Part shown: one piece after another, positions 895 through 37,821 of the stretch | Layout of the letters: the number at the start of each line of letters is the position of its first letter | Numbering within the stretch: the first letter of the stretch is position 1 | NCBI GenBank assembly: GCA_045807845.1 | Contig: JBJMGQ010000085.1 | Location: forward strand, 1-51,490 | Reading direction: 5' to 3' | DNA: 51,490 bases | Origin: Pyrinomonadaceae bacterium | Lineage (GTDB): Bacteria > Acidobacteriota > Blastocatellia > Pyrinomonadales > Pyrinomonadaceae | Notes under the pieces: model-generated | Seen by the model: only the letters and a program-made list of their open reading frames with translations | Told to the model about the DNA's origin: nothing | The model's database searches: none | Position numbers and translations under genes: made by a program

Positions 895-916
895 CTTCTT
901 CTATCCTTGATAAGTA

Positions 917-995
917 ACGATGAAGGAGGAACGCTGAACGATGAACTGCAAGAGAGATGTTTTCAGTTCATCGTTCAGCGTTCGTCCTTCATCGT
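917..995. repeat. family A heptad-hairpin element, copy A1
   Basis: Arms ACGATGAAGGAGGAACGCTGAACGATGAACTG (917-948) and its complement (964-995), 31/32 paired. The right arm overlaps the cyclase stop codon. Confidence 0.9.
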
Positions 996-2935
996 TTTTT
1001 CACGCGCCAGAGTTCGAAGCATTCGTTGTCGAAGCCTTTGAGCATCGCTTCGGAGGGCTCGGCCATGAGGCCGCTTGAGGGGTCTGCGAGTAGCTCCAAG
1101 ACCTCGGGGTCGCGGCGCACGTCGTTGGTGATGACGCAGTCTTCGCCGGTCGAGAGCGGTTCGAGGCGCGCGGCGATGTTGACGTTCGAGCCGAAGTAGT
1201 CGAGCCGTTCGTTGAGCGTGACGGCGATGCAGGGGCCCGCGTGCAGGCCGGCCTTGACCGTGAGCGGGCGCATGCCCTCGGGCGGCGATGCGAGCGCCGC
1301 CTGCGCGCCCATGATGGCGCGCAGCGCAGGCGCGGGGCGCGGGAAGACGGCCATGATGGCGTCGCCCAAAGTCTTCACGATGGAGCCGCCCTCGGCCGCA
1401 ATCGCTTCGCGCAGCACGTCGAAGTGGCTCATCACGGCGCCGAAGGCCACGGCGTCGCCGATCTCTCGATAGAGGCGCGTCGAGTTGCGCAGGTCTGTGA
1501 AGAGGATGGTCATCTGGCCGACGTTGATGCGGTCGCCGGGGCGGAGCGCCTCCGCGGCGAAGAGGTCGCGGAAGAGTTGGAGCGCGGTGACCTCCGCGGC
1601 GGTCGCCGCCTGCCCGCCCCACGCCTCGCGCTCGATGCGGAAGAGACGTTCTTCGCCGGTGTCGTTCTGAAGCTTGATCGAAGGGTGCGTCGAGGCCGTC
1701 AACTCTTCTTCAACGTCGTCGGCGCAGAGCGTCAGCTCTTCCGAGCCGTTGGCCGAGACGAGGAGCGTGCGTGCGTCGTCGTTCGCGCCGGTGCGAAGTT
1801 GGTGGCGTCCCTCTTCGAGCAGCGGCGCGACCGTGCGCGTCTCGCCCGCGGGGACGAGTTGCTGGACGACGATGTGCGGCGTGACCTGCGGGCCGCCGAC
1901 GCAGAAGTCGCGCGCCTCGATGCGGCGGACGGATGGACTGGGGCGGAAGACGACCTCGACCGAGAGGTCGAAGGCGACGTTGAAGTCTATCTGGCAGGAG
2001 TCGCAGTGTTGTTCGGCGCGCACGTCTCGGAGGGCGGTGGCCGACTGCTGCGCGCCGCGGCAGATGGGGCAGAGCAGCTCCCAGCGCAAGTCGAGCAGCC
2101 CCGCGCGCGTCGCCCTCAGACACAGTTCGAGCACTTCGCGGCGCGACGCGCCCCACGCGTCTGCGAGCGCGTAAGGACGCAGGCGCGCGAGCGTCAATTC
2201 GTCGGCGGACTCGACCGTCTTGCAGAGTCGCGCGGCGAGCATGGCGTCGGCACCGTCGGCGACGAGCCTGCCAAGCAGCACGCCGAGCAGCGCGCGTGCG
2301 CTCGCGCCGAGTCTGTTTGCGCGGCCCGCTTCAACGGGCTGAGTCTGTTCGTCAAGGGCGAGCTGGTCGTAGCGGCGAAAGACTTCGGCGAACTTGCGCG
2401 CGCTGATGCGGCCGACCTGAAGGGGAATGACCGCGCGGCCGAGCGCGCCGCGTGGACGAACGCGCACGTCGTAGACGAGGCGCGTGCCGCCGCCCTCGCG
2501 CTCGGAGAGTTCGGCGGCGACGCGCATCTCCGAGACGGGCCCCGTCCGGTAGCGTCGCAACACGCCGAAGCGGAAAGGGCGCACCCACTCGAACGGCTCC
2601 TCCTCCCACTCGATGCCGACGCCGAGCTTCGAGAGCTTGAGACGACGGCGACCGAGGCCGTCGTTAACTTCGGTCGGGGCTTGCGTGGAGACATCGGGCA
2701 GGCCGGCGTCGCGGTTGAAGCGGTTCGTGTCGGAGACGAACGGCCAGAGCGCCCGCGGGCTCGCGCGCAGGTCGTACTCCCAGCGATAGTGGAACTCTCT
2801 CTTGCTCACGCCGCCCCGTCTCATGAATGGAAGATGTCGCGCCGCGCGATAGAAGGAGAGCCCCGGGACGCGCGCGCCCGACGGCGCAACATTCTTGACG
2901 CCGCGGCGCGGCGAGTCAACAAGTTTCTCGGTCAC
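989..2935 (-). CDS. class III adenylate/guanylate cyclase with an N-terminal SRPBCC-like domain and a Cys-rich middle region
   Basis: 648-aa ORF. The C-terminal domain has canonical class III motifs: ILFTDLRNST, VKTLGDAIMAVF, GLHAGPC, FGSNVNIAARLE. The middle region has CPICRG..CDSC. Confidence 0.85.
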   Translation of the reverse strand: MTEKLVDSPRRGVKNVAPSGARVPGLSFYRAARHLPFMRRGGVSKREFHYRWEYDLRASPRALWPFVSDTNRFNRDAGLPDVSTQAPTEVNDGLGRRRLKLSKLGVGIEWEEEPFEWVRPFRFGVLRRYRTGPVSEMRVAAELSEREGGGTRLVYDVRVRPRGALGRAVIPLQVGRISARKFAEVFRRYDQLALDEQTQPVEAGRANRLGASARALLGVLLGRLVADGADAMLAARLCKTVESADELTLARLRPYALADAWGASRREVLELCLRATRAGLLDLRWELLCPICRGAQQSATALRDVRAEQHCDSCQIDFNVAFDLSVEVVFRPSPSVRRIEARDFCVGGPQVTPHIVVQQLVPAGETRTVAPLLEEGRHQLRTGANDDARTLLVSANGSEELTLCADDVEEELTASTHPSIKLQNDTGEERLFRIEREAWGGQAATAAEVTALQLFRDLFAAEALRPGDRINVGQMTILFTDLRNSTRLYREIGDAVAFGAVMSHFDVLREAIAAEGGSIVKTLGDAIMAVFPRPAPALRAIMGAQAALASPPEGMRPLTVKAGLHAGPCIAVTLNERLDYFGSNVNIAARLEPLSTGEDCVITNDVRRDPEVLELLADPSSGLMAEPSEAMLKGFDNECFELWRVKKR

Positions 2936-3574: not shown

Positions 3575-3622
3575 AGGCGGAAGCCCGACCTTGAGGGAGG
3601 GCGCAAGGGAAGTAGGAAGTAG

Positions 3623-3677
3623 GAACGCGGAACGATGAGCTGAAAGCCCGAAGCCTTCAGTTCATCGTTCCGCGTTC
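3623..3677. repeat. family A heptad-hairpin element, copy A2
   Basis: GAACGCGGAACGATGAGCTGAA (3623-3644) pairs with TTCAGTTCATCGTTCCGCGTTC (3656-3677), 21/22. Preceded by GGAAGTA GGAAGTA heptads. Confidence 0.9.
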
Positions 3678-3691
3678 TGCGTTCATCGTTC

Positions 3692-3725
3692 GGCGGAAGC
3701 CCGACCGCGAGGGAGGGCTTCCGCC
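3692..3725. terminator. GC-rich hairpin between convergent genes
   Basis: GGCGGAAGCC (3692-3701) pairs with GGCTTCCGCC (3716-3725). Confidence 0.55.
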
Positions 3726-5886: not shown

Positions 5887-6036
5887 GTTCGCCCCGGGAA
5901 TCCCGCCTGTTCCTCCGAAAAAAGACTTAACAGTCCTCTTTTATCACAAACTCGCGCCATTTTTTGAGCCGATTTCATAACCAGAGGTTCGCCCGTCCAA
6001 TTTTCAACCGCGCTCGCAGGTAGTTCTGACCTGTTT

Positions 6037-6301
6037 CTCAAACGTTCGGGCTTTTTTCTCGAACGTTCGAGCTTTGAGCCTCGACTTTCCGACTTTTTTC
6101 CGAACGTTTGGGCTCCGAGACGGAAACTCCGAGCTTTTTTCTCCAACCTCCGAGAAAAAAGCTGAAAAGTCGAGTCTCAAAGCTCGAACGTTGAGGCTCA
6201 GAGTCGAAACGTCGGGGCTCCGAGCCTCAACTTTCCGTCTCCGAGCCTCAACGTCGGGGCTCGAATCTCGGTTTTCGACCTTCGAGCGGGTAGTTCGGGG
6301 A
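6037..6301. repeat. tract of about 12 degenerate 21-bp tandem repeats containing palindromic CTCGAACGTTCGAG-type cores; also folds as a long imperfect palindrome
   Basis: Clean register at 6176-6280: CTCAAAGCTCGAACGTTGAGG / CTCAGAGTCGAAACGTCGGGG / CTCCGAGCCTCAACTTTCCGT / CTCCGAGCCTCAACGTCGGGG / CTCGAATCTCGGTTTTCGACC. Arms 6058-6090 and 6164-6197 are complementary, with an inner hairpin at 6131-6164. Confidence 0.85.
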
Positions 6302-8540: not shown

Positions 8541-9362
8541 ATGGAAGACAGGATAGAGTCCATGTCGGCGTTCGAGCGTGTGAAGCTGGCGCGCCACCTC
8601 GAACGCCCCTACACGCTCGACTTCGTCGAGCGCCTCTTCGAGGAGTTCGTCGAGGTCAAAGGCGACCGGCGCTACGCCGAAGACCCGGCCATCGTCTGCG
8701 GCTTCGCGCGTTACCGAGGCGTCTCGGTCGCCGTCGTCGGCCAGCAGAAGGGGCGCGACGCCAAGCAGCGCCGCTTCCGCAACTTCGGGATGACCAAGCC
8801 CGAGGGCTACCGCAAGGCCCTGCGGCTGATGCAGCTCGCAGACAAGTTCGGCCGCCCCATCATCACCTTCATCGACACGCAGGGCGCCTACCCCGGCATC
8901 GACGCGGAGGAGCGCGGGCAGGCCGAGGCCATCGCGCGCAACCTCTTCGAGATGTCGCGCCTGCGCGTCCCCGTCGTCGGCGTCGTCATCGGCGAGGGCG
9001 GCTCGGGCGGCGCGCTCGCCATCGGCGTCGCCGACCAAGTCTTGATGCTTGAGAACGCCGTCTACTCCGTCATCACCCCCGAAGGCTGCGCCGCGATTCT
9101 GTTTAAGGACAGCGCGCAGGCGCCTCGCGCCGCGGAGTTTCTGCGCCTGACCGCGCCCGAGCTGTACCGCGCAGGCATCGTTGACCTAGTCGTCCCGGAG
9201 CCCGCGGGCGGCGCGCAGAACGACCACGACGAGACGGCCCGCCTGCTCGACACGGCGCTGTGGGAGAGCCTGCGGCAGACCTCCGCGCTCCCCGAGGCCG
9301 AGCGTCTCGCGCGCCGCTACAAGAAGCTCCGCGCGCTGGGCCGTTGGGAGACGTTGAAGTGA
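8541..9362 (+). CDS. accA: acetyl-CoA carboxylase carboxyltransferase subunit alpha
   Basis: 273 aa with FIDTQGAYPGIDAEERGQAEAIARNL and GEGGSGGALAIG. Somewhat shorter at the N-terminus than typical AccA. Confidence 0.88.
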   Translation: MEDRIESMSAFERVKLARHLERPYTLDFVERLFEEFVEVKGDRRYAEDPAIVCGFARYRGVSVAVVGQQKGRDAKQRRFRNFGMTKPEGYRKALRLMQLADKFGRPIITFIDTQGAYPGIDAEERGQAEAIARNLFEMSRLRVPVVGVVIGEGGSGGALAIGVADQVLMLENAVYSVITPEGCAAILFKDSAQAPRAAEFLRLTAPELYRAGIVDLVVPEPAGGAQNDHDETARLLDTALWESLRQTSALPEAERLARRYKKLRALGRWETLK

Positions 9363-9364
9363 AC

Positions 9365-9439
9365 GCAGAAGTAGGAACGCTGAACGATGAACTGTAAGCC
9401 TGTTATCTTCACTTCATCGTTCAGCGTTCCTACTTCCGC
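9365..9439. repeat. family A heptad-hairpin element, copy A3
   Basis: GCAGAAGTAGGAACGCTGAACGATGAA (9365-9391) pairs with TTCATCGTTCAGCGTTCCTACTTCCGC (9413-9439), 26/27. Starts 3 nt after the accA stop. Confidence 0.9.
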
Positions 9440-9515
9440 CTTCCGGCGCGGCTGTTTCCCATTTGCGAAGAATTAAGGGATAATTGAGGAAAATTTTAAA
9501 AGGAATGATAAAGAA

Positions 9516-12646: not shown

Positions 12647-12710
12647 TCTAAAAACCGGCGACCGTTGACAGGCAGGCATGTTCGCCTCTCAACGGTCGCC
12701 GGTTTTTAGA
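12647..12710. terminator. bidirectional terminator hairpin between convergent lepB and the secreted-protein gene
   Basis: 22-bp perfect stem TCTAAAAACCGGCGACCGTTGA / TCAACGGTCGCCGGTTTTTAGA. The stem ends are A/T runs, so each strand reads a U-tract. Confidence 0.8.
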
Positions 12711-12730
12711 CCACTGGTAAAGTGTGCCTG

Positions 12731-15110: not shown

Positions 15111-15164
15111 GAATGAGGGCGGACGAGAGTCAGTGTGACTCTCGTCCGCCCTCATTCTGTTTTC
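15111..15164. terminator. bidirectional terminator hairpin between convergent yihY-like and M20 peptidase genes
   Basis: 22-bp perfect stem GAATGAGGGCGGACGAGAGTCA / TGACTCTCGTCCGCCCTCATTC, followed by TGTTTTC. Confidence 0.8.
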
Positions 15165-23288: not shown

Positions 23289-23365
23289 TTAACCACCGCA
23301 GACACAGAGACACGGCTTTGAAGATTTATAACTTCAAGCCGTGTCTCTGTGTCTGCGGTGGTTAA
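23289..23365. repeat. very long hairpin (about 34 bp stem) downstream of carB, family C (AGACACA-type units)
   Basis: TTAACCACCGCAGACACAGAGACACGGCTTTGAAG (23289-23323), loop ATTTATAA, and the complement at 23332-23365 with one bulged T. Followed by CTTTTCGG. Confidence 0.9.
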
Positions 23366-23607: not shown

Positions 23608-25425
23608 ATGTCCACGAACAACGGCGGGCGGGCGTATACCTTTGGCCCCTTCGTGTTGGACACGCGCGAGGGAACTCTGCTGCGTGAGGGGCGCCCCGCG
23701 CAGCTCACGCCGAAGGCGTTCGAGACGCTCGTCGCGCTCGTCGAGCAGAGCGGCCGCTGCATCGGCAAAGAGGAGCTGATGCGAAGGGTCTGGCCCGACA
23801 GCTTCGTCGAAGAGAACAACCTCTCGCAGAACATCTCGCAACTGCGCCGCGCCTTGCAGGCCGAGGGCGCCGCACAGTACATCGAGACCGTGCCGCGCCG
23901 CGGCTATCGCTTCAACGCGCCCGTCGTGGTGCAGGAGGTCGCGCCGGCCTTAAGTGAAAACGAAGAGAGTAAGGTTTCGGTCGTCGCGCCTTCAGGCAGG
24001 GTCGAGCTGTTTGCGCGTGCCGCGGAAGTAGAGGGCACGGGCGAGCAGGGAGCGGACGAGTTCCCGCCGGAGTTGATGCGCGTGCCCGAGACGCGCTACG
24101 CCTTGAGCGGCGACGTGAACATCGCCTACCAGACGCTCGGCGACGCGCCGCTCGACCTCGTCTTCGTGATGGGCTGGGTTTCGCACCTCGAATACTTCTG
24201 GCGCGAGCCCTCGGTCGCGCGCTTCCTGCGGCGGCTCGCGACCTTCTCGCGCCTCATCCTCTTCGACAAACGCGGGACGGGGCTTTCAGACCGCGTGCCG
24301 CTCGACCAACTGCCCACGCTCGAACAGCGCATGGACGACGTGCGCGCCGTGCTCGAAGCCGTGGGCTCGGAGCGCGCCGCCATCATCGGCATTTCGGAGG
24401 GCGGGCCGCTCTCTGCGCTCTTCTCCGCGACCTACCCGGAGCGCACGAGCGCGCTCGTCATGATCGGCACCTACGCCAAACGCGTGCGCGACGAAGACTA
24501 CCCGTGGGCGCCGACGTGGGAGCAGCGCGGCGAGTTCCTGCGCGAGATGCGTGAGCATTGGGGCGGCCCCGTCGGCATTGAGGAGCGCGCGCCGTCGAAG
24601 GCGAACGACCCGGCGTTCCGCGAGTGGTGGGCCGAGTACCTGCGGATGGGCGCGAGCCCCGGCGCCGCCGTCGCGCTCACGAAGATGAACGCCGAGATTG
24701 ACGTGCGCCACGTGCTGCCGACCGTGCGCGTGCCGACGCTCGTCATACATAACCGGGGCGACCTCTGCCTCAAGGTCGAAGAGGGTCGCTACGTCGCCTC
24801 GCGCATCCCGGGCGCGCGCTTCGTCGAGCTGCCCGGCTCCGACCACCTGCCCTTCTTCGAGGGACAGGACGCCATCGTCAACGAGATTGAAGAGTTCCTC
24901 ACCGGCGCGCGCCACACACGCGAGCCCGACAGCGTGCTCGCCACGCTGCTCTTCGTCAACATCATTGACCGCGACGTGCGCGCCGCCGAGCGCGGCACTC
25001 GCGGCTGGCGCGATCTTGTCAGACGCTTTCGCGCGCACGTCTCGAAGGAGATAAAGTGGTTCCGCGGTCGCGAGATTGATATGGAAGGCGCGGGGCCGCT
25101 CGCCACCTTCGACGGCCCCGCGCGCGCCATCCGCTGCGCCTGCGCCGTCAGCGAGTACGCGGCGCGGCTCAACATAGAGGTGCGCGCAGGTCTCCACACG
25201 GGCGAGTGCGATCTGCTGGAAGGCGGGCGCGTGGGCGGCCTCGCCGTCGAGGTAGGCCGAGCGGTGCGCGAGCGCGCGGGGCCGGGCGAAGTGCTCGTCT
25301 CGCACACGGTCAAAGACCTCGTCGCCGGCTCCGGCATCACCTTCGAGGAGCGCGGCGCGCACGCCTTTGAGGGGCTGCCCGGCGACTGGCGCCTCTTCCG
25401 CGTCGAGCGCGGCGCGTGCGTGTAA
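23608..25425 (+). CDS. three-domain protein: OmpR/CadC-type winged-helix DNA-binding domain + alpha/beta hydrolase + degenerate class III cyclase-homology domain
   Basis: N-terminus: TFGPFVLDTREGTLLREG..LTPKAFETLVALV..VPRRGYRF. Middle: FDKRGTGLSDR and IGISEGG (nucleophile elbow). C-terminus: LLFVNIID, EGAGPLATFDGPARAIRCA, GLHTGE, GPGEVLVSHTV. Confidence 0.85.
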   Translation: MSTNNGGRAYTFGPFVLDTREGTLLREGRPAQLTPKAFETLVALVEQSGRCIGKEELMRRVWPDSFVEENNLSQNISQLRRALQAEGAAQYIETVPRRGYRFNAPVVVQEVAPALSENEESKVSVVAPSGRVELFARAAEVEGTGEQGADEFPPELMRVPETRYALSGDVNIAYQTLGDAPLDLVFVMGWVSHLEYFWREPSVARFLRRLATFSRLILFDKRGTGLSDRVPLDQLPTLEQRMDDVRAVLEAVGSERAAIIGISEGGPLSALFSATYPERTSALVMIGTYAKRVRDEDYPWAPTWEQRGEFLREMREHWGGPVGIEERAPSKANDPAFREWWAEYLRMGASPGAAVALTKMNAEIDVRHVLPTVRVPTLVIHNRGDLCLKVEEGRYVASRIPGARFVELPGSDHLPFFEGQDAIVNEIEEFLTGARHTREPDSVLATLLFVNIIDRDVRAAERGTRGWRDLVRRFRAHVSKEIKWFRGREIDMEGAGPLATFDGPARAIRCACAVSEYAARLNIEVRAGLHTGECDLLEGGRVGGLAVEVGRAVRERAGPGEVLVSHTVKDLVAGSGITFEERGAHAFEGLPGDWRLFRVERGACV

Positions 25426-25447
25426 GTTAGGGGAGGGAAGTGACTGG

Positions 25448-25948
25448 ATGACGACGACGGTCGAGATTCGCGCAGCCGTGTTGACGGTGAGCGACCGCAG
25501 CGCGCGCGGCGAGCGCGAGGACGAGTCGGGGCCGTTGCTGGCCGAGCTGCTGCGCGCGGCGGGTGCGACGGTCGTCTCGCAGGAGATCGTGTCGGACGAG
25601 TTAGAGCCGCTCGCCGAACGCCTGCGCGCGCTCGCCGAGCGCGAGGATGTCAACCTCGTCGTGACGACCGGCGGGACTGGCTTAGGCCCGCGCGACAACA
25701 CGCCCGAGGCCACGCGCTCTGTTGTCGAGAGGGAAGTGCCCGGCCTCGTCGAGGCGATGCGCGCCGAGACTCTCAAACAAACTCCGACGGCGCTGCTCTC
25801 GCGCGCCGTCTGCGGCACGCGCTCGGGCGCGCTCGTCGTCAACCTCCCCGGCTCGCCGAAGGGCGTGCGCGAATGCTTCGCCGTCCTCCGCCCCGTCCTC
25901 GCACACGCCGTCGCCCAACTCGCCGGCCGCGATCATGAAAGACAGTAG
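25448..25948 (+). CDS. MoaB/MogA-family molybdenum cofactor biosynthesis protein
   Basis: AAVLTVSDRSARGEREDESGP and LVVTTGGTGLGPRDNTPEA are typical of the MoCF_biosynth domain. Start trimmed to the ATG at 25448. Confidence 0.85.
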   Translation: MTTTVEIRAAVLTVSDRSARGEREDESGPLLAELLRAAGATVVSQEIVSDELEPLAERLRALAEREDVNLVVTTGGTGLGPRDNTPEATRSVVEREVPGLVEAMRAETLKQTPTALLSRAVCGTRSGALVVNLPGSPKGVRECFAVLRPVLAHAVAQLAGRDHERQ

Positions 25949-26051
25949 GCAGATGGCAGAGGGCAGTAGGCAGTCGCTTCCGCGTCGCGGACGTTGAAAG
26001 GTCAAATCGGAAGTTTCGATAGCAGGGCTTTCAACTGCCATCTGCCTACTG
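25942..26051. repeat. family D heptad array (GNNGGCA)n with a distal inverted copy, between moaB-like and nuoA
   Basis: GTAGGCA GATGGCA GAGGGCA GTAGGCA (25945-25972). The 17-nt CAGTAGGCAGATGGCAG (25943-25959) is complementary to CTGCCATCTGCCTACTG (26035-26051). Confidence 0.85.
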
Positions 26052-26156
26052 CTTCTCAGAAAGCTTTTGACAACATCGGGGGCGCGGCCTAGAATCCGCA
26101 CAGTTCTTCACTTCGCCAAACGCACGAGCGCACCAACCGAAGGCGAGACCAGAGAG

Positions 26157-26576
26157 ATGCTGAGCGCACTACTACTGCAAGCGAACCCTGCCGCCGCCGC
26201 GGGCGGGCCGCTGACGGCCTACTGGCCCGTGATGATCTTCCTCGCGGTGGCGGCGGTCTTCCCCGTGCTGCCCGTGGTGCTCGGTCGCTTCGTGCGACCG
26301 AACATCTACGGCAAGGCGAAGATGCGCCCCTACGAGTGCGGCATCGACCCCGTGACCGAGGCGCACGACCGCTTTACCGTGCGCTACTACATCGTGGCGA
26401 TGCTCTTCCTCGTCTTCGACGTGGAGACGATCTTCCTGCTGCCTTGGGCCATCATCTTCATGGGCGACGAGTTCTCCTTCACCAAGTTCGCGCTCTTAGA
26501 GATGTTCGTCTTCATCGGCATCCTCGTCGTCGGCTACTACTACGCTTGGCGCAAGGGCGCTTTGGAGTGGGCTTGA
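26157..26576 (+). CDS. nuoA: NADH-quinone oxidoreductase subunit A
   Basis: PYECGIDP, RYYIVAMLFLVFDVETIFLLPWA. Start trimmed to the ATG at 26157. Confidence 0.9.
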   Translation: MLSALLLQANPAAAAGGPLTAYWPVMIFLAVAAVFPVLPVVLGRFVRPNIYGKAKMRPYECGIDPVTEAHDRFTVRYYIVAMLFLVFDVETIFLLPWAIIFMGDEFSFTKFALLEMFVFIGILVVGYYYAWRKGALEWA

Positions 26577-26580
26577 GATA

Positions 26581-26660
26581 GTTTTCAGTTTTTTGTTTTC
26601 AGTTTTCAGCAAGACCAAGCTGCTGACTGAAAACTGAAAACTGAAAACTGAAAACTGACT
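26581..26660 (+). repeat. family B (GTTTTCA)n/(TGAAAAC)n hairpin element, copy B1 (nuoA-nuoB spacer)
   Basis: Left arm of GTTTTCA units (26581-26609), loop AAGACCAAGCTG, right arm of 4 TGAAAAC units ending ..GAAAACTGACT directly before the nuoB ATG at 26661. Confidence 0.92.
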
Positions 26661-27314
26661 ATGGCTGAGCATCAAGAAGGTATCGTACTGACGACGGTCG
26701 ATTCTATCTTCAACGCGCTGCGGCGGAACGTGGCCGCGCCGGTGATGGGGGCGAAGCCCGTGCGGGGCCTCGTCAACTGGGGGCGCAAGTCGGCGCTGTG
26801 GCCGATGACGTTCGGGCTCGCGTGCTGCGCCATCGAGATGATTGCGGCCGGCTCTTCGCGCTTCGACATCGACCGCTTCGGCGCGGGCGTCTTCCGCCCC
26901 TCGCCCCGCCAGAGCGACCTCATCATCGTCGCGGGCACCGTGACTTTGAAGATGGGGCCGGTCGTGCGCCGCGTCTACGACCAGATGCCCGAGCCGAAAT
27001 GGGCCATCGCGATGGGCGCGTGCGCCTCGACGGGCGGCCCCTTCGACTCCTACTCGACGATGCAGGGCGTTGACCGCGTCATCCCCGTGGACGTGTACAT
27101 CCCGGGCTGCCCGCCGCGCCCCGAGGCGCTCCTCTACGGCCTCATGTGCCTGCAAGAGATCATCATGCGCGAGTCGCCCAACGCCTACATCTTCGAGTCC
27201 GACGGCAGCGTCCACCGCCGCCGCGAACTCCCCGAAGACGACGAGGAGCCGCTCGCCGAAATCGCCCCCCTCGATGCCGAAGCCGCCGAAGTCGTCGCCG
27301 ACGCCAGGGGCTGA
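26661..27314 (+). CDS. nuoB: NADH-quinone oxidoreductase subunit B
   Basis: N2 cluster ligand motifs [23 protein letters not shown]. Acidic C-terminal extension. Confidence 0.95.
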
Positions 27315-27348
27315 AGTAGGACGGAAGAGAAAAAGTTAGACGGAGAAA

Positions 27349-27383
27349 GCGAGGCTCTCATCAATAACCGATGAGAGCCTCGC
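27349..27383 (+). terminator. hairpin downstream of nuoB
   Basis: GCGAGGCTCTCATC..GATGAGAGCCTCGC, a perfect 14-bp stem. No clear U-tract. Confidence 0.5.
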
Positions 27384-27413
27384 TGCCTCTTATCCTACTG
27401 CACTTCTCTTTTT

Positions 27414-28190
27414 GGTAGTGGCTCAATCGTAAGAGAGAGCCAGAGAATTATTGTAGTCATGCAGAAAGAGTTGCAAACACAGTTCGTGCATCGCATCCGA
27501 CTTCGAAAAAGACAGACTCTTTCTGACGAAGCGCCCGAGCCGCTGCCGCAAAGTATTGTTCCACCGCTCGACATGCGCCGTGAAGCCGGTCTCTTTGCCC
27601 GCCGTGGTATGTTGCTCGGCAGGGATCACCAAAGAGTAAGCTTCCCAAAAGTCGCTGTAGCAATGAGCCGCTCGATACCTGGCCGGTATCTGCTCCCAGA
27701 GTTTTTGACAGCTCGCCCGGCTCCTGTCGCCGACGACATAAGCCACGACTTGTCGGGTGGCACGACACAGCGCGATCCATATCCAGCGCTTGTTGGCGCG
27801 CTTTAAGACGAATGACCAGAGTTCATCCAATTCCAGGGCGATGGCGGCTGGCAGCGTCGGGTCAATCAGTGTCTCGCTCAACTCGGGCAGCGTCGTCTCT
27901 TTTTTTGAGCCAACCGGTGACGGTGTTTCTGGAGACGCCGAAGGTGCGCGACAGGCCGCGCAAGGAACTGCGCTCGTGGTAAGCACGAAGTATCTGTTCC
28001 CGCTCCTCTTCGGTGTAGCCATTGGCTTGCGGGTCGTCACGGCTCATGCGCCCGCAGTCGGAGCAGAGGTAACGCTGCTTGCCGTTTTGCGTCAAGCCGT
28101 TGCGCACGAGCCTGTCGCCGCCGCAGTGATAGCACTTGAGTTTGACCATGCGAGAGAGTCTACAGCCTCTCCCGCGATTGAACCACTACC
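27414..28190 (-). mobile_element. IS1-family insertion sequence (777 bp)
   Basis: Terminal inverted repeats GGTAGTGGCTCAATCG (27414-27429) and CGATTGAACCACTACC (28175-28190), 15/16 complementary. They enclose insA-like and insB-like frames. Confidence 0.85.
27423..28149 (-). CDS. IS1-family transposase InsAB' (requires a -1 frameshift); upstream frame alone = InsA-like zinc-finger/HTH protein (27862..28149)
   Basis: InsA frame: CYHCGGDRLVRNG..YLCSDCG. A7 slippery run on the coding strand (T7 at 27900-27906 on +). A -1 shift joins ..VTGWLKK to KETTLPELSETL..DELWSF..(DDE-type InsB). Confidence 0.85.
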
Positions 28191-28198
28191 CGGAAAGC

Positions 28199-28244
28199 AA
28201 CAAACGAAAACGAGAAGGCCGCAGCTTTGACTGCGGCCTTCTCG
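28199..28244 (-). terminator. rho-independent terminator of prfA (minus strand)
   Basis: CGAGAAGGCCGCAG..CTGCGGCCTTCTCG, followed on the minus strand by TTTTCGTTTGTT. The IS1 end (28190) abuts it. Confidence 0.8.
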
Positions 28245-28292
28245 TTCTTAAGCGTTGCGCGTCCGGCGCTGCTCACTCGTTACTGCTTTGAG

Positions 28293-29369
28293 CTAGGCGG
28301 CGACCGTTTCGGCCTTGAGCTTCTCGGCTTGGTAGTGTGCGACGAGGGCGTTGATGAATTCGTCGAGGGCGCCCTCCATGACGAGGTCGAGCTGGTGGAT
28401 GGTGAGCCCGATGCGATGGTCTGAGACGCGGTTCTCTTTGAAATTGTAGGTGCGAATCTTCTCGGAGCGGTCGCCGGAGCCGACCATCTGCCGGCGCTCG
28501 CTGGCCTGCGCCTCGTGCTGCTTCTGCTCTTCGAGTTCTTGCAGGCGCGCGCGCAAAACCCGCATCGCCTTCTCGCGGTTCTTGATCTGCGACTTCTCAT
28601 CCTGCATCGAGACGACGGTGTTCGTGGGCAGGTGCGTAATGCGCACGGCCGAGTAGGTGGTGTTGACCGACTGGCCGCCCGGCCCCGACGAGCAGAAGGT
28701 GTCGATGCGCAGATCGTTCTGGTTGATCTTCACGTCAACCTCTTCGGCCTCGGGCAGCACGGCGACGGTGACGGCCGAAGTGTGGATGCGCCCCGAAGTC
28801 TCGGTCTGCGGCACGCGCTGGACGCGGTGGACGCCCGACTCGTGCTTGAGCTTCGAATAGACCTTCTCGCCGGAAATTTCGGCGATGGCCTCTTTGAGGC
28901 CGCCTATCCCTGACTCGGACTGGTCGAGAATCTCCATCTTCCAGCCCTGCCGCTCGGCGTAGCGGCCGTACATGCGCAGCATCTCGGCGGCAAAGAGCGT
29001 CGCCTCGTCGCCGCCCGTGCCGGCGCGAATTTCGAGGATGACGTTCTTCTCGTCGTTCGGGTCGCGCGGGAGCAGGAGGACTCGCAGGTCTTCTTCGACC
29101 TTCTCAAGTTGCTCTTCGAGCGTCGCCGTTTCGACGCGCGCCATCTCGCGCATCTCCTCGTCTTCGCCCAAGTCGTAAAGCTCGCGCGCGTCGGAAAGCT
29201 CCGACTTGAGCTGCTTCAACTCGCGATACTTCGAGACTACTTCGCCTAAGCTGCGGTGCTGCTTGTTGAGCTTCCCGTAGTTCGCGGGGTCGGAGTAGAC
29301 CTCGGGCGACGACAGCTCCTCGGTCAGAGCTTCATAGCGCGCTTCGATCTGTTCGAGTTTGTCTAGCAT
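28293..29369 (-). CDS. prfA: peptide chain release factor 1
   Basis: GGQ motif [11 protein letters not shown] and RF1-type recognition loop [17 protein letters not shown]. Confidence 0.95.
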
Positions 29370-29375
29370 GATTGA

Positions 29376-30593
29376 TTACGACAGAGGCGTTAACGCGGCC
29401 TCCTGCGGCTGCGGCTCAAACTTGAGCGATTCTTTGAGCGCGACGATGGCGACTTCGAGCTGCTGGTCGTCGGGCTCCTTCGTCGTGACGTTCTGGAGCC
29501 AGACGCCGGGGCGCGTGATGAGCTTGAAGACGAGGCCGCCCTCCTTCTTCGCGGAGAGCCGTATGATCTCGTAGCTCAGGCCGGCGACGACCGGGATGAG
29601 CGCGACGCGGACGGCGATGTTGTAAGCGAACGAGCTGAAGGCGATGATCGAGAAGAGCACGATGGAGACGAGCATCACGACCATCAGGAAGCTCGTGCCG
29701 CAACGCGGGTGCTGGCGCGGCTGGATGCGCGCGTTCGCGACCGTGAGCGGCAGCCCCGATTCCCAGTTGAAGACCGTCTTGTGCTCCGCGCCGTGATACT
29801 CGAAGACGCGCCGGATGTCTTTCGAGAGTGAGAAACTTGAAATCATCAGAATGAAAATCGCCATCCGGATCATGCCGTCGATGAGGTTGAAGGCGACGTT
29901 CGGCTTCACGGGCTTCAGATAGCCGCGGACGCCGTTGTACGTGCGCGTGTACCAAGGCGCGTCGGCGGCCGTCGCATCGGCGGGCCGTGCGTCGGTGTTC
30001 GGCGCGGCTTCAGTCGCGGGGCGCTTGATGTCGCCGGCCGCCTGTTGCTGCGCGGCGGGCACTTCGCCCGCGCTACGGTCGGCCCAGCCCATGCCGATGA
30101 AGAGGGCGTTGGTGAGCATGAGCGGCGCGACGACGAAGAGCAGGATGTTGAAGAGCATCGCGAAGGCGATGGAGCCGAAGGCCGCGGCCGAGCCGCGTTT
30201 CAACTCGTCCTCGGGGCGCTTCTGCGTCGGGATGGGGAAGAGGCCGGGGACGCCGCCGGTGATGCCTGCGAAGTCGCCCTCGCCTTCGACGACCGCGGGC
30301 GTGAGTGCGACCGCTTCGGCCGTCTCAGTCTCCTCGACGAAGGCTTCGGCGGCCGAGTAGTTGAGCGCCTTGATGCCGAGCGCCATCGACTGCACGAGCA
30401 CGGCGGCGCCGCGCAGCACGGGGAGCTTGAGCGCGGGATACTTGTCGCTCCACTTCGGCAAGGAAGCACCCGTGTGCGTGATGGTGCCGTCGGGGCGGCG
30501 CACCGCGATGGCGTACGCGGAGGGCGTGCGCATCATCACGCCTTCGATGACGGCTTGGCCGCCGACAATCAGGTCTTTTTCGCTGGCGCTCAC
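29376..30593 (-). CDS. DUF1385-family membrane protein (prfA-associated) with Ala/Gly/Glu-rich insertions
   Basis: N-terminal [12 protein letters not shown] and C-terminal [14 protein letters not shown] motifs are typical of DUF1385. Adjacent to prfA, as is common. Confidence 0.85.
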
Positions 30594-30764
30594 GGGAAAA
30601 TCCTTTCGGGTAAAGTGAAACGCCGACCTTCGGTGCGGCTTTGCTTTCGTTACCCCTTGAGGGTAAGAAAGGCTGGGGCCGCGGGCGCGAAAGGTCGGCG
30701 TCCGGGTTCTGGGTAGCTAATACTGGCGGCGTCGAATCGGTGTCATAGACGCTGGCCGAACGGC

Positions 30765-31004
30765 TCAGGCGTTGGCGCCTTCGGTCGCGGCCGGAGCTTC
30801 GGTCTTCTTGCCGTAGCGCTTGTTGAAGCGGTCAACGCGGCCAGCCGTGTCGATCAGCTTCTGCTTGCCCGTGAAGAACGGGTGACACTCCGAGCAGATT
30901 TCAAGGTGGAGGTCGTCCTTCTTGGTCGAGCGCGTCTGGAAGTTGTTGCCGCAGGCGCAGTGGACGGTGACCTCGTGGTAGTCGGGATGAATTCCTTGCT
31001 TCAT
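30765..31004 (-). CDS. rpmE: 50S ribosomal protein L31 (Zn-ribbon type)
   Basis: [41 protein letters not shown]. Confidence 0.95.
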
Positions 31005-31054
31005 TTCTCTTTCCTCTCTGATAGCGGGCCGCGAGCGGCCTCAAACAAAGCCCC

Positions 31055-31084
31055 ATCTTACCGACGCTTGTCGCGCATCGTCAA
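31055..31084 (-). promoter_or_regulatory. possible promoter of rpmE
   Basis: On the minus strand: TTGACG, 18-nt spacer, TAAGAT. About 50 nt upstream of the rpmE ATG. Confidence 0.35.
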
Positions 31085-31328
31085 GTTGTGCAAGGACTTG
31101 GATGCACGACGCGGCCTCCGGATTGCCCGCGCGTGGGCACAACGAGGGGCGCGGCACTAGTTTGTTGACAGGCGTACAAATCGCGTGTTACAAACGCGCT
31201 GAACACACCTTTGCAGCTTTTCCGTTAGAGTACCTTGAAAGTTATACAAGCCGCACTCATAGACGAGTAGGGACTCAAGTTGTTCCCCGAGCTACGTCCT
31301 TACACGGGAGTTGAACCTTTAGGACGCG

Positions 31329-32579
31329 ATGACGGACGAACCCAAAAACCCTCCGAAATCCGACGCAACCTCACCGCCTGAAAGCGACGAAACACGCCGC
31401 GCGGCAGACACATCCCCGGCAGCAGATGAGGCCGCGGGCGCGCTGCCGCCCCCGCCCGACGCCGAAGAGCCGCGACCCACGCCCGAGAGTCAGGCGGCTC
31501 TGACCGGCAAAGCGCCTTCGGGCAGCTCGACTTCAGGCACGACCGTCCCAGCCTCGACAGAGAGACCCAAACCACCGGCCGCGCCTCCCTCCAACGAGAC
31601 ACCCGAGGAGAAGAAGGCGCGACTCGAACGCATCATCGCCGAGGCGAAGGCGAAGAAGGAGGCCGCCGCCGCTGCCGCCGCGCAGGCCGAGGCCGGAGGG
31701 GGCGGGGAAGCGCCGCCGCCGGGCGGCAAGTCGCCCGAGGTCGGCGACCCTTTGAAGAGTCCTTCGCAGGCAGACCTCGAACGCGCCGCCAAGATCGCAG
31801 AGGCCAAGGCGCGCGCCGCCGCCGCAAAGGAGGAGGCCGCCGCGAAGTCGCCCGCCGCGGCTCCCGGCGCAGGGAAGCCCGCCCCTCCGGCCGCGGCCGG
31901 GGCCGGCATTCCGAAGCCTCCCGTCAAGAAGAAGGACGAAGGGCCGAAGCCGGTCGAGTCGCCCGAACATCCTCTGTTCAAGCGCTTGCGCGACCGCTTC
32001 GGCGACGCTGTTGAGGGCGCTTTCACTTTCGTCAACCAGCTCTCGATTCACGTCAAGGCCGAAGTCGTCATGGAAGTCTGCATGGCTTTGCGCGACGACG
32101 CGGAGACGCCGTTCGACTATCTGTCCGACCTGACCTGCGTCCACTGGCCCGAGCGCGAAGAGGCGCCGTTCGAGGTCGTCTACAACCTCTACTCCATCTC
32201 GAAGAACGAGCGCGTGCGCGTGAAGGCCGCGGCGGGCGAGGCGGGGCTGGACAGCGTCACGGGCGTCTGGCCGACGGCCAACTGGATGGAGCGCGAGGCT
32301 TACGATCTGTTCGGCGTGACCTTCAACAATCATCCAGACCTGCGGCGTCTGCTCCTGCCGAAAGATTGGGACGGCCACCCGCTGAGGAAGGACTACCCGC
32401 TGGAGTTCATGGAGAACGAGTGGACGACGCGCCACCTGCCGGAGTTCACCGAAGTCCAGCGCGAGCAGTTGGCGCAGCGGCGCGCATACGGCCTCGAAAT
32501 CCTCCAGACGCCCGACGAGCGGCGCATCCGCGAAATCTTCCGCGACGGGCGCGACCCGTTGCCGAAGGAGCACAAGTAG
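31329..32579 (+). CDS. nuoC: NADH-quinone oxidoreductase subunit C with a ~210-aa Pro/Ala/Lys/Glu-rich N-terminal extension
   Basis: The conserved NuoC core starts near 31966 (HPLFKRLRDRFG..WPTANWMEREAYDLFGVTFNNHPDLRRLLLP..HPLRKDYPL). The upstream 212 codons are low-complexity but in frame and GC3-rich. Confidence 0.85.
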   Translation: MTDEPKNPPKSDATSPPESDETRRAADTSPAADEAAGALPPPPDAEEPRPTPESQAALTGKAPSGSSTSGTTVPASTERPKPPAAPPSNETPEEKKARLERIIAEAKAKKEAAAAAAAQAEAGGGGEAPPPGGKSPEVGDPLKSPSQADLERAAKIAEAKARAAAAKEEAAAKSPAAAPGAGKPAPPAAAGAGIPKPPVKKKDEGPKPVESPEHPLFKRLRDRFGDAVEGAFTFVNQLSIHVKAEVVMEVCMALRDDAETPFDYLSDLTCVHWPEREEAPFEVVYNLYSISKNERVRVKAAAGEAGLDSVTGVWPTANWMEREAYDLFGVTFNNHPDLRRLLLPKDWDGHPLRKDYPLEFMENEWTTRHLPEFTEVQREQLAQRRAYGLEILQTPDERRIREIFRDGRDPLPKEHK

Positions 32580-32585
32580 ACGCAA

Positions 32586-32834
32586 ATGCACCCGAAAGAC
32601 CTCGCCGCCAAGTACGAAGTGAAGGTCTTCGACAGCCCCTCGGCCGCCGAAGCCGCAGGCTTCCGACTCGGCCAACGCATGAGCCCACGCAACGTCTGGA
32701 ACCGTGACTCCGCGGCCTCCGCCATCCTCTTCGACCTGCTCGGCAAGCGGAAACGCGGCGAAGTCTCCGAGGTCGCCCTCGTGCTTGAGACGGCCAGCGT
32801 CGCGGGAGCCTTCAAGGGAAACGATGAAGTATGA
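32586..32834 (+). CDS. small hypothetical protein embedded between nuoC and nuoD
   Basis: 82-aa ORF with strongly GC3-biased codons, starting 4 nt after the nuoC stop. VFDSPSAAEAAGFRLGQRMSP weakly recalls the Ada N-terminal Zn-binding domain pattern, but without the cysteines (from memory, unverified). Confidence 0.5.
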   Translation: MHPKDLAAKYEVKVFDSPSAAEAAGFRLGQRMSPRNVWNRDSAASAILFDLLGKRKRGEVSEVALVLETASVAGAFKGNDEV

Positions 32835-32888
32835 ACGCTGAATGATGAACTGAAGGCAGCTTGTCTTACAGTTCGACGTTCAGCGTTC
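32833..32888. repeat. family A heptad-hairpin element, copy A4 (more diverged)
   Basis: GAACGCTGAATGATGAACTG (32833-32852) pairs with CAGTTCGACGTTCAGCGTTC (32869-32888), 17/20. Lies between the 82-aa ORF stop and the nuoD start. Confidence 0.8.
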
Positions 32889-32907
32889 CGAGTCCATAGT
32901 TCAAACC

Positions 32908-34041
32908 ATGCATCAAGTAGAAGTCGCCACCACGCAGGAGACCTTACTCGACAACCCCGAGATGGTCTTGAACATGGGGCCGCAGCACCCTTCGACCCAC
33001 GGCGTGCTGCGCGTCATCCTGCGCCTCGACGGCGAGACCGTCATCGACCTCGACTGCGACATCGGCTTCCTCCATCGCGGCATGGAGAAGATTGCCGAGA
33101 ATCGCCTCTACCCGATGATCGCTCCTTACTGGGACAGGCTCGACTACATCGCGGCGGTCTCGAACGGGCTGGTCTGGGTCGAGACCGTCGAGCAGATGAT
33201 GGGGCTCGAAATCCCTCGGCGCGCGCACTACATCCGCACCATCCTCACGGAGCTGAACCGCATCTCTTCGCATCTGCTCTGGCTCGCCACGCACGCGCTC
33301 GACATCGGCGCCTTCACCGTCCTGCTGCACGCCTTGCGCGAGCGCGAGGAGATTCTGAAGATATTCGAGCAGCAGTTCGGCGCGCGCCTCACCTGCCACG
33401 CGTGGCGCATCGGCGGCATGCCGAACGACGCCTACGAAGGCTTTACCGAGGACGTGCAGCAGTTCGTCGATAACTTCCCGAATCGCATCGACCAGTACGA
33501 GACGCTGCTCTCGGAGAATCGCATCTGGCTCGGGCGCACCGTGGGCATCGGCGTCATCTCGGCCGCCGACGCCATCGCCATCGGGCTCTCGGGGCCGTCC
33601 CTGCGCGGCTCGGGCGTCGCGTGGGACATACGCAAAAGCCGTCCGTATGCGGCCTACGGCGAACTCGACTTCGACGTGCCCGTCGGCGAGAACGGCGACA
33701 CGTATGACCGCTACCTCGTCCGCATCGAAGAGATGCGCCAGTCGCGCCGCATCGTCCAGCAGGCTTTGAAGCAGATGCCTGACGGCCCCGTCAACGCCAA
33801 GATTCCGAAGGTGCTCAAGCCCCCGGCCGGCGACTACTATCATTCCATCGAAGGCCCGAAGGGCGAGATCGGTTGTTACTTAGTCAGCGACGGCACGAGC
33901 CGCCCGTATCGCGTCCGCGTCCGCCCGCCGTGCCTCATCAACCTACAGGCGCTGCGGCAGATGTGCGTCGGCCACCTCGTCGCCGACGTGGTCGCCATCA
34001 TCGGCACGCTCGACATCGTGCTCGGAGAGATAGACCGTTAG
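32908..34041 (+). CDS. nuoD: NADH-quinone oxidoreductase subunit D
   Basis: [22 protein letters not shown], and [23 protein letters not shown] at the C-terminus. Confidence 0.95.
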
Positions 34042-34116
34042 TTTTCGGTTTTTAGTTTTCAGTTTTCAGCAAGACCAAGCTGCCGACTGAAAACCGAAAA
34101 CTGAAAACTGAAAACT
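34041..34116 (+). repeat. family B hairpin element, copy B2 (nuoD-cupin spacer)
   Basis: Nearly identical to B1, including the loop GCAAGACCAAGCTGC. Begins at the nuoD stop and ends ..GAAAACT directly before the ATG at 34117. Confidence 0.92.
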
Positions 34117-34587
34117 ATGAATGTCATTCGCCTACCCGTGCAGAAGATGACGCGCGAGGCTTTCGCGCCGTACGGGATCGTGCTCGACCGGCGCGGCTCC
34201 GTGGACGTGGACATTGGGATGGGCGTGCCGAGCATCACGGGCGCGACGGCCGACCCGCGCCCCTTCAAGTTCGACTTCATGGCGCGCCACCGCCACACGA
34301 TGCAGGTCTTCTCGCCGCTCGCGGGCTCGCAGGCCGTCATCTGCGTGGCGCCGCCCAACGGGCTCGACGCGCCCGACGTGGACAGGGTCGTCGCCTTTCT
34401 CGTCGAAGGCCGTCTGCCTTACGCATACTTCCGCGGCACCTGGCACACGCCGCCCTTCGCCACCGGCGAGTGGTACTCCTACCTCGTCGTAGACCGCAAG
34501 GGCACGCTCGACGAAGACCTTGAGCTGGTGGACATCAGGGCCGCGCGCGGCTGCACGTTCGAGATTGACCTGTCAACTGACGGCTGA
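34117..34587 (+). CDS. ureidoglycolate lyase (AllA) family cupin-fold protein embedded between nuoD and nuoH
   Basis: 156 aa. REAFAPYGIV, ARHRHTMQVFSPL, AVICVAP, AFLVEG..YFRGTWHTPPF and YLVVDRKG follow the AllA/PF04115 pattern (E. coli AllA: EAFSAYGDVI, ERHPLGTQAFIPM, NVWHHPLF, TIDRGG). Confidence 0.72.
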   Translation: MNVIRLPVQKMTREAFAPYGIVLDRRGSVDVDIGMGVPSITGATADPRPFKFDFMARHRHTMQVFSPLAGSQAVICVAPPNGLDAPDVDRVVAFLVEGRLPYAYFRGTWHTPPFATGEWYSYLVVDRKGTLDEDLELVDIRAARGCTFEIDLSTDG

Positions 34588-34599
34588 ACGCTTGAAACC

Positions 34600-35949: not shown

Positions 35950-35977
35950 GTCACCGAAGGGTTGTAAGAGAGGTCGT

Positions 35978-36511
35978 ATGTCTTTAGTCAAAGTTCCGCG
36001 GGCCGGTTGGGGAGAGAGGCTGAAGCGCTTCTTTCTGGCGGACGTGTTCAAGGGGATGTGGCTGACGTTGAAGTATAACGTCGGCGCGTTGACGGACAAG
36101 AATTCCGTCAGCGGCTACGGCATCTACACCGAGCAGTATCCTTCCGTCAGGCCGCAGGTGGCGCCGCGCTTCCACGGCGCGCCGCGGCTGAACATGGATC
36201 CCGAGACGCACGAGTCTCTGTGCATCGCCTGCAACCTCTGTGCGCTGGCCTGCCCCGAGGACTGCATCGACGTGATCGCGATGGACATCGAGATGACGGT
36301 CGGCGGCAAGCCGCGCAAGAAGAAGGTGCTCGACGAGTTCATCTTCGACACTTCGCGCTGCATGTTCTGCGCGCTCTGTCAGGAGGCGTGCCCCACGGCC
36401 TGCCTTGAGCTGACGCAGGAGTTCGAGCTCGCCACCTACTCGCGCGCGGGCTTCGTCTGGAACCGCGAGATGCTTGAGCAGGGGCGCGAGTCGCGCAAGT
36501 TTGAAGCTTGA
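35978..36511 (+). CDS. nuoI: NADH-quinone oxidoreductase subunit I
   Basis: Two 4Fe-4S motifs, CIACNLCALACP and CMFCALCQEACP. Start trimmed to the ATG at 35978 with GAGAGG upstream. Confidence 0.93.
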   Translation: MSLVKVPRAGWGERLKRFFLADVFKGMWLTLKYNVGALTDKNSVSGYGIYTEQYPSVRPQVAPRFHGAPRLNMDPETHESLCIACNLCALACPEDCIDVIAMDIEMTVGGKPRKKKVLDEFIFDTSRCMFCALCQEACPTACLELTQEFELATYSRAGFVWNREMLEQGRESRKFEA

Positions 36512-36515
36512 AGCG

Positions 36516-36617
36516 GTTTTCAGTTTTCAGTTTTTAGTTTTCAGTAAGAGCGGCAGTTACGCGAACGCTCCGAGAGGAAACGACAGGCTGAAAACTGAAA
36601 ACTGAAAACTGAAAACT
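36516..36617 (+). repeat. family B hairpin element, copy B3 (nuoI-nuoJ spacer)
   Basis: GTTTTCAGTTTTCAGTTTTTAGTTTTCAG (36516-36544), a 43-nt loop, then CTGAAAACTGAAAACTGAAAACTGAAAACT (36588-36617) directly before the nuoJ ATG. Confidence 0.92.
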
Positions 36618-37316: not shown

Positions 37317-37327
37317 AGATTCAGAGC

Positions 37328-37729: not shown

Positions 37730-37735
37730 GGGACA

Positions 37736-37821
37736 GTTTTCAGTTTTCAGTTCTCAGTGTTCAGCTAAGACAAGGAGCTGAATTCTGCGGACTGAAAACT
37801 GAAAACTGAAAACTGAAAACT
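37736..37821 (+). repeat. family B hairpin element, copy B4 (nuoK-nuoL spacer)
   Basis: GTTTTCAGTTTTCAGTTCTCAGTGTTCAG (37736-37764), loop with TAAGACAAGGAGCTG, and four TGAAAAC units ending ..GAAAACT directly before the nuoL ATG at 37822. Confidence 0.92.

Follow-up and report, generated by a model that had tools for sequence, protein, structure and literature searches.

The genes for respiratory complex I (nuo) of a Pyrinomonadaceae bacterium are entered, on contig JBJMGQ010000085.1 (51,490 nucleotides (nt), analysed in full and called the window below), through two spacers that each hold a hairpin with arms of tandem heptanucleotides (heptads), namely element D between moaB and nuoA and element B1 between nuoA and nuoB. 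This arrangement raises the question of whether the host has selected such structures to tune its respiratory genes, as an earlier note on this DNA had proposed, or whether they are insertions that the host tolerates. Our analysis points to the second answer: D and B1 are probably derivatives, lacking the open reading frame (ORF), of a mobile cassette that resembles the intervening sequences (IVS) of 23S rRNA genes and bears a PF05635 gene in its full members. The ends of this cassette are inverted arrays of 3-5 tandem heptanucleotides, and in full-length members a PF05635 gene of ~120 aa lies between the arms. The sequence comparisons presented here show that the elements are gained, lost, replaced and copied at gene junctions and that their central segment can flip.

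Elements D and B1 and the predicted nuoA promoter

Element D agrees with the earlier note in its four tandem heptads and in a 17-nt segment whose perfect complement lies 75 nt further downstream, except that this segment starts 2 nt ahead of the array (Table 1). The first heptad supplies the moaB stop codon TAG (25946-25948). The arms can be extended to 24 nt at 88% complementarity, and the chance expectation for 17-nt inverted repeats within 150 nt is ~4.5e-4 in the window. The predicted RNA fold of D reaches -57.7 kcal/mol (z = -5.4), and 0 of 200 shuffles were as good. B1 has a predicted fold of -48.5 kcal/mol (z = -6.4) and fills the entire 84-nt spacer between nuoA and nuoB: a left arm of (AGTTTTC)n (26580-26609) and a right arm of (CTGAAAA)4 (26627-26658) enclose a 17-nt loop (26610-26626), positions 26580-26609 and 26627-26656 are complementary at 28/30, and the right arm is followed by gact and ATG. 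The loops of D and B1 (75 and 17 nt) contain no ORF, no PF05635 gene is present in the window, and no Rfam family was matched at gathering score anywhere in it.

The earlier note had regarded D as a stem-loop in the 5' region of nuoA, a placement that promoter prediction does not support. A sigma-70-type promoter, TTGACA-N17-TAGAAT, with 11 of 12 consensus matches (0.2 such matches expected per shuffle) was predicted downstream of D, the end of which is ~10 nt 5' of the -35 box. Transcription of nuoA is accordingly predicted to start near 26102-26104 and hence beyond position 26051, the last of the D stem. Soil metatranscriptome contigs, all of them from relatives, yielded neither a usable transcription start nor usable cleavage ends. 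Both promoter hexamers are kept ~86-102 nt 5' of the nuoA ATG in all close relatives and 120 nt in the more distant L153, irrespective of the upstream gene, which can be moaB or one for an S41 peptidase. Given this conserved promoter on its 3' side, D most likely belongs to the moaB 3' region, or forms part of a read-through transcript, rather than lying in the nuoA 5' untranslated region.

The extent of D, from the moaB stop codon almost to the nuoA -35 box, would also suit an intrinsic terminator of a carB-moaB unit. We consider this very unlikely in view of the 75-nt loop and of the close relatives that do without the element, and a search for terminator-like sites (a G+C-rich stem with a T run) found none in 25300-27400.

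Turnover of the elements and PF05635 cassettes

Loci around NuoA homologues were collected from Pyrinomonadaceae-like metagenome contigs (85 loci; individual sequences are designated by L and a number) and yielded 69 distinct orthologous nuoA|nuoB junction sequences. Ten of these are empty, with a spacer of 1-12 nt, including L121 and L130 (94% NuoA identity), and ~56 (~81%) carry a heptad hairpin, 50 of them recognised by a strict period-7 rule and ~6 more by eye. The occupied junctions represent at least 19 families that share no 9-mers. The elements usually fill the whole spacer from the upstream stop codon to the next start codon or promoter, the junction hairpins leaving a median of 4 nt between stop codon and stem and of 7 nt between stem and ATG. 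One nuoA|nuoB heptad hairpin (L183, 4547-4730) is nested, its loop containing a second, near-perfect non-heptad hairpin of ~50 bp.

Occupancy changes over short distances. Loci that are 94-97% identical to the window in nuoA nucleotides have unrelated heptads or no element at nuoA|nuoB, occupied and empty states are discordant in 26 of 88 close pairs, and the element family carries almost no phylogenetic signal. The moaB|nuoA site is filled by a D-type hairpin in the window, L131 and L133 and by a sister form, built of CAGTAGA, CAGTAGT and CAGTAGC units, in L128, L130 and L132, and it is empty in L123/124/127, L129 and L126, the last with 97% NuoA identity; where the D site is empty, the moaB ORF continues into the promoter region. 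The heptads of the D-type and sister forms differ, and both arms have changed together. The discordance at both sites is the signature of element gain, loss and replacement and not that of a conserved regulatory structure. Relatives that lack the elements, which the earlier note had named as evidence against its own interpretation, do exist; in close relatives the sites are empty or filled by an unrelated family.

The centre of the D-site elements has a history of its own. Compared with the L131 loop, the D loop of the window matches the reverse complement at 44 of 57 positions, with a score of 20.5 vs -3.6 for the forward alignment. The loops of L131 and L132, in contrast, can be aligned in the forward sense, and L128 gives a weaker signal of this kind. 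These alignments point to one old insertion whose centre was flipped by recombination between the arms. D-type arms were also found in at least seven flanking contexts in soil RNA assemblies.

The link to PF05635 comes from the long members. All long nuoA|nuoB spacers (300-478 nt) consist of inverted heptad arms around a ~120-aa ORF, which is intact in L123/124/127, L150, L195 and L147, frameshifted in L188, internally deleted in L204 and cut by the contig end in L197; full-length, decayed or contig-truncated forms of this kind occupy 7 of the 69 distinct junctions. The tested ORFs match PF05635 (23S_rRNA_IVP) at 54-132 bits (gathering cut-off 33.8) and bAvd weakly; among solved structures, the nearest ones (2GSC and 2RLD) have no known function. 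Since hairpin-only junctions sharing heptads with L195, L147 and L204 are common (the largest family), intact, decayed and ORF-less stages coexist at one site.

The same architecture recurs elsewhere. Two other Acidobacteriota contigs and one Neisseriaceae contig have a PF05635 ORF flanked by (AGTTTTC)n on one side and (GAAAACT)n on the other, and in a Muribaculum contig such an ORF is flanked by TAACTCT-type arrays. In a plasmid sample, for which PF05635 genes were picked by protein similarity alone (tblastn against plasmids) and regardless of repeats, heptad arrays flank ~10/12 of the genes and are mostly inverted; the hosts are Nostoc, Anabaena, Stanieria, Picosynechococcus, Leptolyngbya, Geminocystis, Pseudanabaena, Riemerella and Azospirillum. 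A Calothrix plasmid PF05635 gene is also flanked by heptad arrays. The arrays of B1 are themselves widespread: over 120 stretches of species-representative genomes, from Planctomycetota, Acidobacteriota, Poribacteria, Verrucomicrobiota, Bacteroidota and others, contain (CTGAAAA)3, which often forms a hairpin and often adjoins arrays of other heptads.

A constant sense orientation of the cassettes was considered as a further trait and rejected; it held in 11/11 acidobacterial and other contig cases, but in only ~7/10 of the plasmid sample. In three cyanobacterial plasmids (L207, L211 and L213), heptad-flanked PF05635 genes annotated as 'four helix bundle protein' are located between cas6/cas4 and cas10/cmr3, and these genes may be insertions rather than CRISPR components.

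The stem itself could explain why such inserts persist. In relatives with an empty nuoA|nuoB site, GGAG stands 10 nt before the nuoB ATG, and nuoA is joined to nuoB in metatranscriptome contigs (contigs from relatives only). A stem of 25-35 bp would fold the insert away and, at the RNA level, would return the upstream stop codon and the Shine-Dalgarno sequence (GGAG) to the downstream ATG; an insertion from stop to start would be tolerable because these signals are brought back beside the ATG, and the element could then persist. At the DNA level, the arms would permit arm-to-arm conversion, inversion and clean loss. For IVS that encode PF05635, complementary ends and excision by RNase III have been described (PMC4990558). 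By analogy with such PF05635-carrying 23S rRNA IVS, the 25-35-bp stems are likely RNase III substrates, and the long double-stranded stem would be cut. Cuts at B1, B2, B3 and B4 would divide nuo transcripts between cistrons, whereas D, if it acts at all, would more likely serve as a structure at the 3' end of moaB. If subunit stoichiometry is affected, this would be a by-product and not the reason for the elements.

Several observations weigh against this origin of D and B1. No transposase or other mobility enzyme was found associated with the elements, the PF05635 ORF being the only one between the arms, and we know of no function or catalytic role of PF05635. The sequence GAAAG on both flanks of D (25938-25942 and 26060-26064) is no more than a hint of a target duplication, since L123 and L126, where the site is empty, have 5 nt more and give no clean alignment. 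nuoA is a conserved gene, and 94-97% identity may still cover a long divergence. Within the plasmid sample, one cassette (L213) has direct instead of inverted arrays and ~3/10 are antisense to their neighbours. Finally, the very high occupancy of nuo junctions described below could mean that the host benefits from the hairpin.

Possible selection, enrichment at nuo and the surroundings of the elements

Heptad hairpins are present at all six nuo-region junctions that the earlier note had listed (D, B1, A4, B2, B3 and B4). In the window alone, however, the contrast between nuo and other junctions (5/12 vs 3/25) is not significant (p = 0.083). A strict detector applied to orthologous loci (520 kb) yielded 31 heptad hairpins outside nuoA|nuoB, around half of them at moaB|nuoA or other nuo junctions, against a background elsewhere of roughly 0.03-0.06 hairpins per kb. 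Three further nuo junctions are occupied in 3/8, ~4/8 and 3/4 of cases (~50%), and together with nuoA|nuoB this gives an occupancy of 50-80% at nuo junctions vs roughly 3-6% elsewhere, or ~10 times that of the average junction. The enrichment at nuo junctions is real, and it is convincing only with the orthologous loci added. It may reflect insertion preference, tolerance or host benefit.

Host benefit would be expected if the hairpins were RNA structures selected to tune the processing, stability or translation of nuo mRNA and thereby subunit stoichiometry. Besides the enrichment, this explanation can draw on the pairing of the arms, which form Watson-Crick pairs at 1252 of 1388 positions (90%) in 48 junction stems and stay complementary while the heptad sequence changes, and on the right arms of B2-B4, which stop 2 nt short of the ATG, no Shine-Dalgarno sequence lying between. 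However, close relatives have empty sites, unrelated families or ORF-carrying forms at the same site, members of the same element families are present away from nuo, D is not part of the promoter-defined nuoA transcript, and the 48 stems show no excess of G.U over A.C mismatches on the transcribed strand (39 vs 29, p = 0.27), the bias that RNA-level selection on the sense strand would predict. We therefore consider host selection unlikely. Of the earlier proposal of selection for structure, the family-wide punctuation of nuo and the maintained complementarity of the arms stand, while the empty or unrelated sites of close relatives, the missing G.U bias and the families shared with non-nuo sites speak against it. 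The stems of the nuoA|nuoB hairpins in L126-L205 do have a class polarity, with G/T-rich 5' arms and A/C-rich 3' arms on the sense strand, and mismatches with a left-arm G opposite a right-arm A outnumber the reverse (26 vs 6).

Outside nuo, these families are represented by A1-A3 in the window and, in another Acidobacteriota genome (L023), by a B4-like copy, the B4 loop being found there after an unrelated gene. B1 and B2 have an identical loop, GCAAGACCAAGCTGC(T/C)GA. The B1-B4 and A1-A4 hairpins thus amount to several inverted-repeat copies within one 51-kb window, a trait of miniature inverted-repeat transposable elements (MITEs).

The forward right array could alternatively be the functional part of these elements, as a leader for translation independent of a Shine-Dalgarno sequence. 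B2, B3 and B4 share (CTGAAAA)4CT-ATG, in these three the right arm is purer than the left, and the forward right array of B1 ends 4 nt before its ATG, again with no Shine-Dalgarno sequence between. TAACTGA repeats precede start codons in Beggiatoaceae, Cyanobacteria and Bacteroidetes (PMC4679880), the B unit read in the TAACTGA register is AAACTGA, one base off, and many (CTGAAAA)n arrays of other phyla adjoin an ATG. Such a leader is nevertheless very unlikely to account for the elements, since over 41 junction hairpins the right arms are not purer than the left (14 vs 17, p = 0.6), right-arm sequences are highly diverse, A1, A2, A3 and D are not next to a start codon, D being followed by a promoter instead, and the published TAACTGA sets are almost all direct and not inverted.

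We likewise weighed whether the arrays were born in place by replication slippage, as local simple-sequence expansions that involve no mobile element. Heptanucleotides are the commonest unit of long simple-sequence repeats (SSRs) in prokaryotes according to Mrazek (2007), as cited in PMC4679880, and the heptads at the D site diverge in place among relatives. Slippage would explain neither the inverted second arm and the PF05635 ORF between the arms, nor identical loops at different junctions and the recurrence of one family in different genomes at sites that are not orthologous, and we regard it as extremely improbable. These explanations and the cassette origin are not all mutually exclusive.

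Period 7 dominates the tandem arrays of the window (n = 10), periods 5, 6, 8, 9 and 10 being represented by only 0-3 each. In many cases a heptad element provides or overlaps the stop codon of the gene before it, as seen for moaB, the 82-aa ORF, nuoD and gene 8541-9362 (25946-25948, 32832-34041, 9360-9362); the stop of the 82-aa ORF lies within the A4 left arm, and the nuoD stop TAG is part of the first B2 unit. TGA or TAG is present in A, B (right arm) and D units, and period 7 puts it in all three frames over three units. The block of ~230 nt at 6034-6260 can form several alternative long hairpins and resembles a compound or nested heptad element. Near-perfect inverted repeats without period 7 were also found at gene ends (23289-23365, 15111-15157 and 12646-12711, with arms of 30, 22 and 28 nt) and represent a kind of hairpin distinct from the heptad class.

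Table 1. Heptad elements, the predicted nuoA promoter and the adjoining genes in the window.
Feature	Position	Strand	Details
moaB/mogA-like gene (MoCF_biosynth)	25367..25948	+	Pfam PF00994, E = 4.7e-35
Element D, whole	25936..26058	+	Stem 25943-25959 / 26035-26051, loop 25960-26034
Element D, left heptad array GTAGGCA GATGGCA GAGGGCA GTAGGCA	25945..25972	+	Tandem Repeats Finder (TRF), period 7
Sigma-70-type promoter TTGACA-N17-TAGAAT for nuoA, predicted	26067..26095	+	11/12 consensus matches
nuoA, 139 aa	26157..26576	+	Pfam PF00507, E = 3.7e-34
Element B1, entire nuoA/nuoB spacer	26577..26660	+	Arms, fold, tandem units
nuoB	26661..27314	+	Pfam PF01058
A4 heptad hairpin, GAACGNT-type units	32820..32901	+	Between 82-aa ORF and nuoD
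B2 hairpin	34039..34117	+	Between nuoD and 156-aa ORF
B3 hairpin, 43-nt loop	36516..36616	+	Between nuoI and nuoJ
B4 hairpin	37734..37821	+	Between nuoK and nuoL
A1 heptad hairpin	916..996		Between two minus-strand genes, outside nuo
A2 heptad hairpin	3607..3695		Convergent gene junction, outside nuo
A3 heptad hairpin	9361..9443		Begins at stop codon of gene 8541-9362, outside nuo
Composite multi-hairpin block of heptad units	6034..6260		TRF period 21; inside 784-nt divergent intergenic region

The G+C content of the window is 64%, and records from Pyrinomonadaceae and Acidobacteriota name the homologues of its NuoA as NADH-quinone oxidoreductase subunit A. No record with exactly the NuoB protein of the window was found, and the source genome was not contained in any sequencing run (best share of words 0.27-0.30). 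The complex I set (26157-44347) is of the 11-subunit type without nuoEFG. Contrary to the earlier description of a single respiratory operon, its genes form two blocks, nuoAB (26157-27314) and nuoC-N (from 31329), parted by ~4 kb of minus-strand genes (an IS1 copy, prfA, a DUF1385 gene and a small ORF); the split is also present in relatives, which have rpmE where the small ORF sits. The IS1-family copy (27423-28149, minus strand) lies just 3' of nuoB, at a place where relatives have a His_Phos_1 gene; its InsA zinc-ribbon/HTH (helix-turn-helix) ORF (27862-28149) overlaps the InsB DDE_Tnp_IS1 ORF (27423-28040), and its codon GC3 (G+C at third positions) is below that of its neighbours. Additional small ORFs of the complex I set encode 82 aa 5' of nuoD and 124 aa 5' of the last antiporter-like subunit, and a 156-aa ureidoglycolate-lyase-like ORF is located between nuoD and nuoH. 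With 901 aa, the listed NuoL ORF is of unusual length, and the set includes three Proton_antipo_M genes. Apart from the complex I genes, ORF 3071-3574 contains an in-frame tandem repeat of 15/30 nt (3191-3404; unit AAGGGCGGCGCGAAG, ~12.7 copies).

Known repeats and the meaning of the heptad cassettes

The closest parallel to the elements is the PF05635 or 'S23p' IVS in the 23S rRNA of Leptospira and Coxiella burnetii, a small selfish insert in a transcribed unit with complementary ends that form a long stem. The stem measures 28 bp in Coxiella; such IVS carry a ~120-aa PF05635 ORF prone to decay and are sporadic among close relatives (PMC4990558). The full-length nuoA|nuoB cassettes match this architecture as well as the sporadic presence. 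They differ in their site, which is helix 45 of 23S rRNA in the IVS and an intercistronic spacer of mRNA here, and in their arms, which are tandem heptads of many sequences; D and B1 have no ORF, and for this reason we speak of ORF-less derivatives and not of IVS proper.

With TAACTGA repeats, the elements share intergenic forward heptanucleotide arrays that end one to a few nt before an ATG, no Shine-Dalgarno sequence and a patchy distribution across unrelated phyla. Those repeats are direct, whereas here an inverted partner arm is found throughout and many unrelated heptads are used (the D unit being GNNGGCA); the published sets include one inverted case among 170 and report no link to PF05635 (MacGregor, 2015; PMC4679880). 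The short tandemly repeated repetitive (STRR) sequences of cyanobacteria, and heptanucleotide long SSRs in general, are similar in their tandem 7-nt unit, their intergenic position and the occurrence of several families per genome, and the plasmid PF05635 genes of Nostoc, Calothrix and Anabaena are flanked by STRR-like heptamer arrays. The present elements reside in Acidobacteriota and have units other than the generally known STRR consensus of heterocystous cyanobacteria, and their inverted arms and cassette ORF fall outside the STRR definition. MITE-like hairpins such as Correia/NEMIS of Neisseria and REP/BIME are also short, multi-copy intergenic inverted repeats that lie within operons and fold in mRNA, and Correia elements are RNase III targets. 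Here, in contrast, neither a transposase-encoding parent nor a RAYT (REP-associated tyrosine transposase) gene was seen, and the heptad periodicity of the arms is absent from those families.

The elements of this locus are hence a variant of described kinds, and the part worth following is the link between PF05635 cassettes and heptad arrays. PF05635 is an abundant family of four-helix bundle proteins with solved structures, noted mainly in 23S rRNA IVS and as a relative of Avd of diversity-generating retroelements. To our knowledge, the origin and function of heptanucleotide repeats have stayed unexplained, for STRR since 1990 and for TAACTGA arrays since 2015. None of the literature searched connected PF05635 or S23p to heptamer repeats, which does not exclude that such a paper exists. 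We tentatively propose that PF05635 genes bracketed by inverted heptad arrays could constitute a family of mobile 'intervening' cassettes that spans several phyla (here Acidobacteriota, Cyanobacteria, Bacteroidota and Proteobacteria) and is undescribed in the papers searched. Under this proposal, ORF-less hairpins might explain much of the heptamer content of the STRR and TAACTGA types and might prefer stop-start junctions of particular operons such as nuo, and the heptad structure, not its sequence, might be what a mobility or maintenance mechanism recognises.

Bringing PF05635 and heptad arrays together provides a testable hypothesis for both, based on one orthologous junction with all stages, recurrence in unrelated phyla and the very high occupancy of complex I junctions. 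It is also a warning that such hairpins should not be taken as operon-specific regulators, and that in the cas operons of cyanobacteria the PF05635 gene of a cassette could be mistaken for a component of the system.

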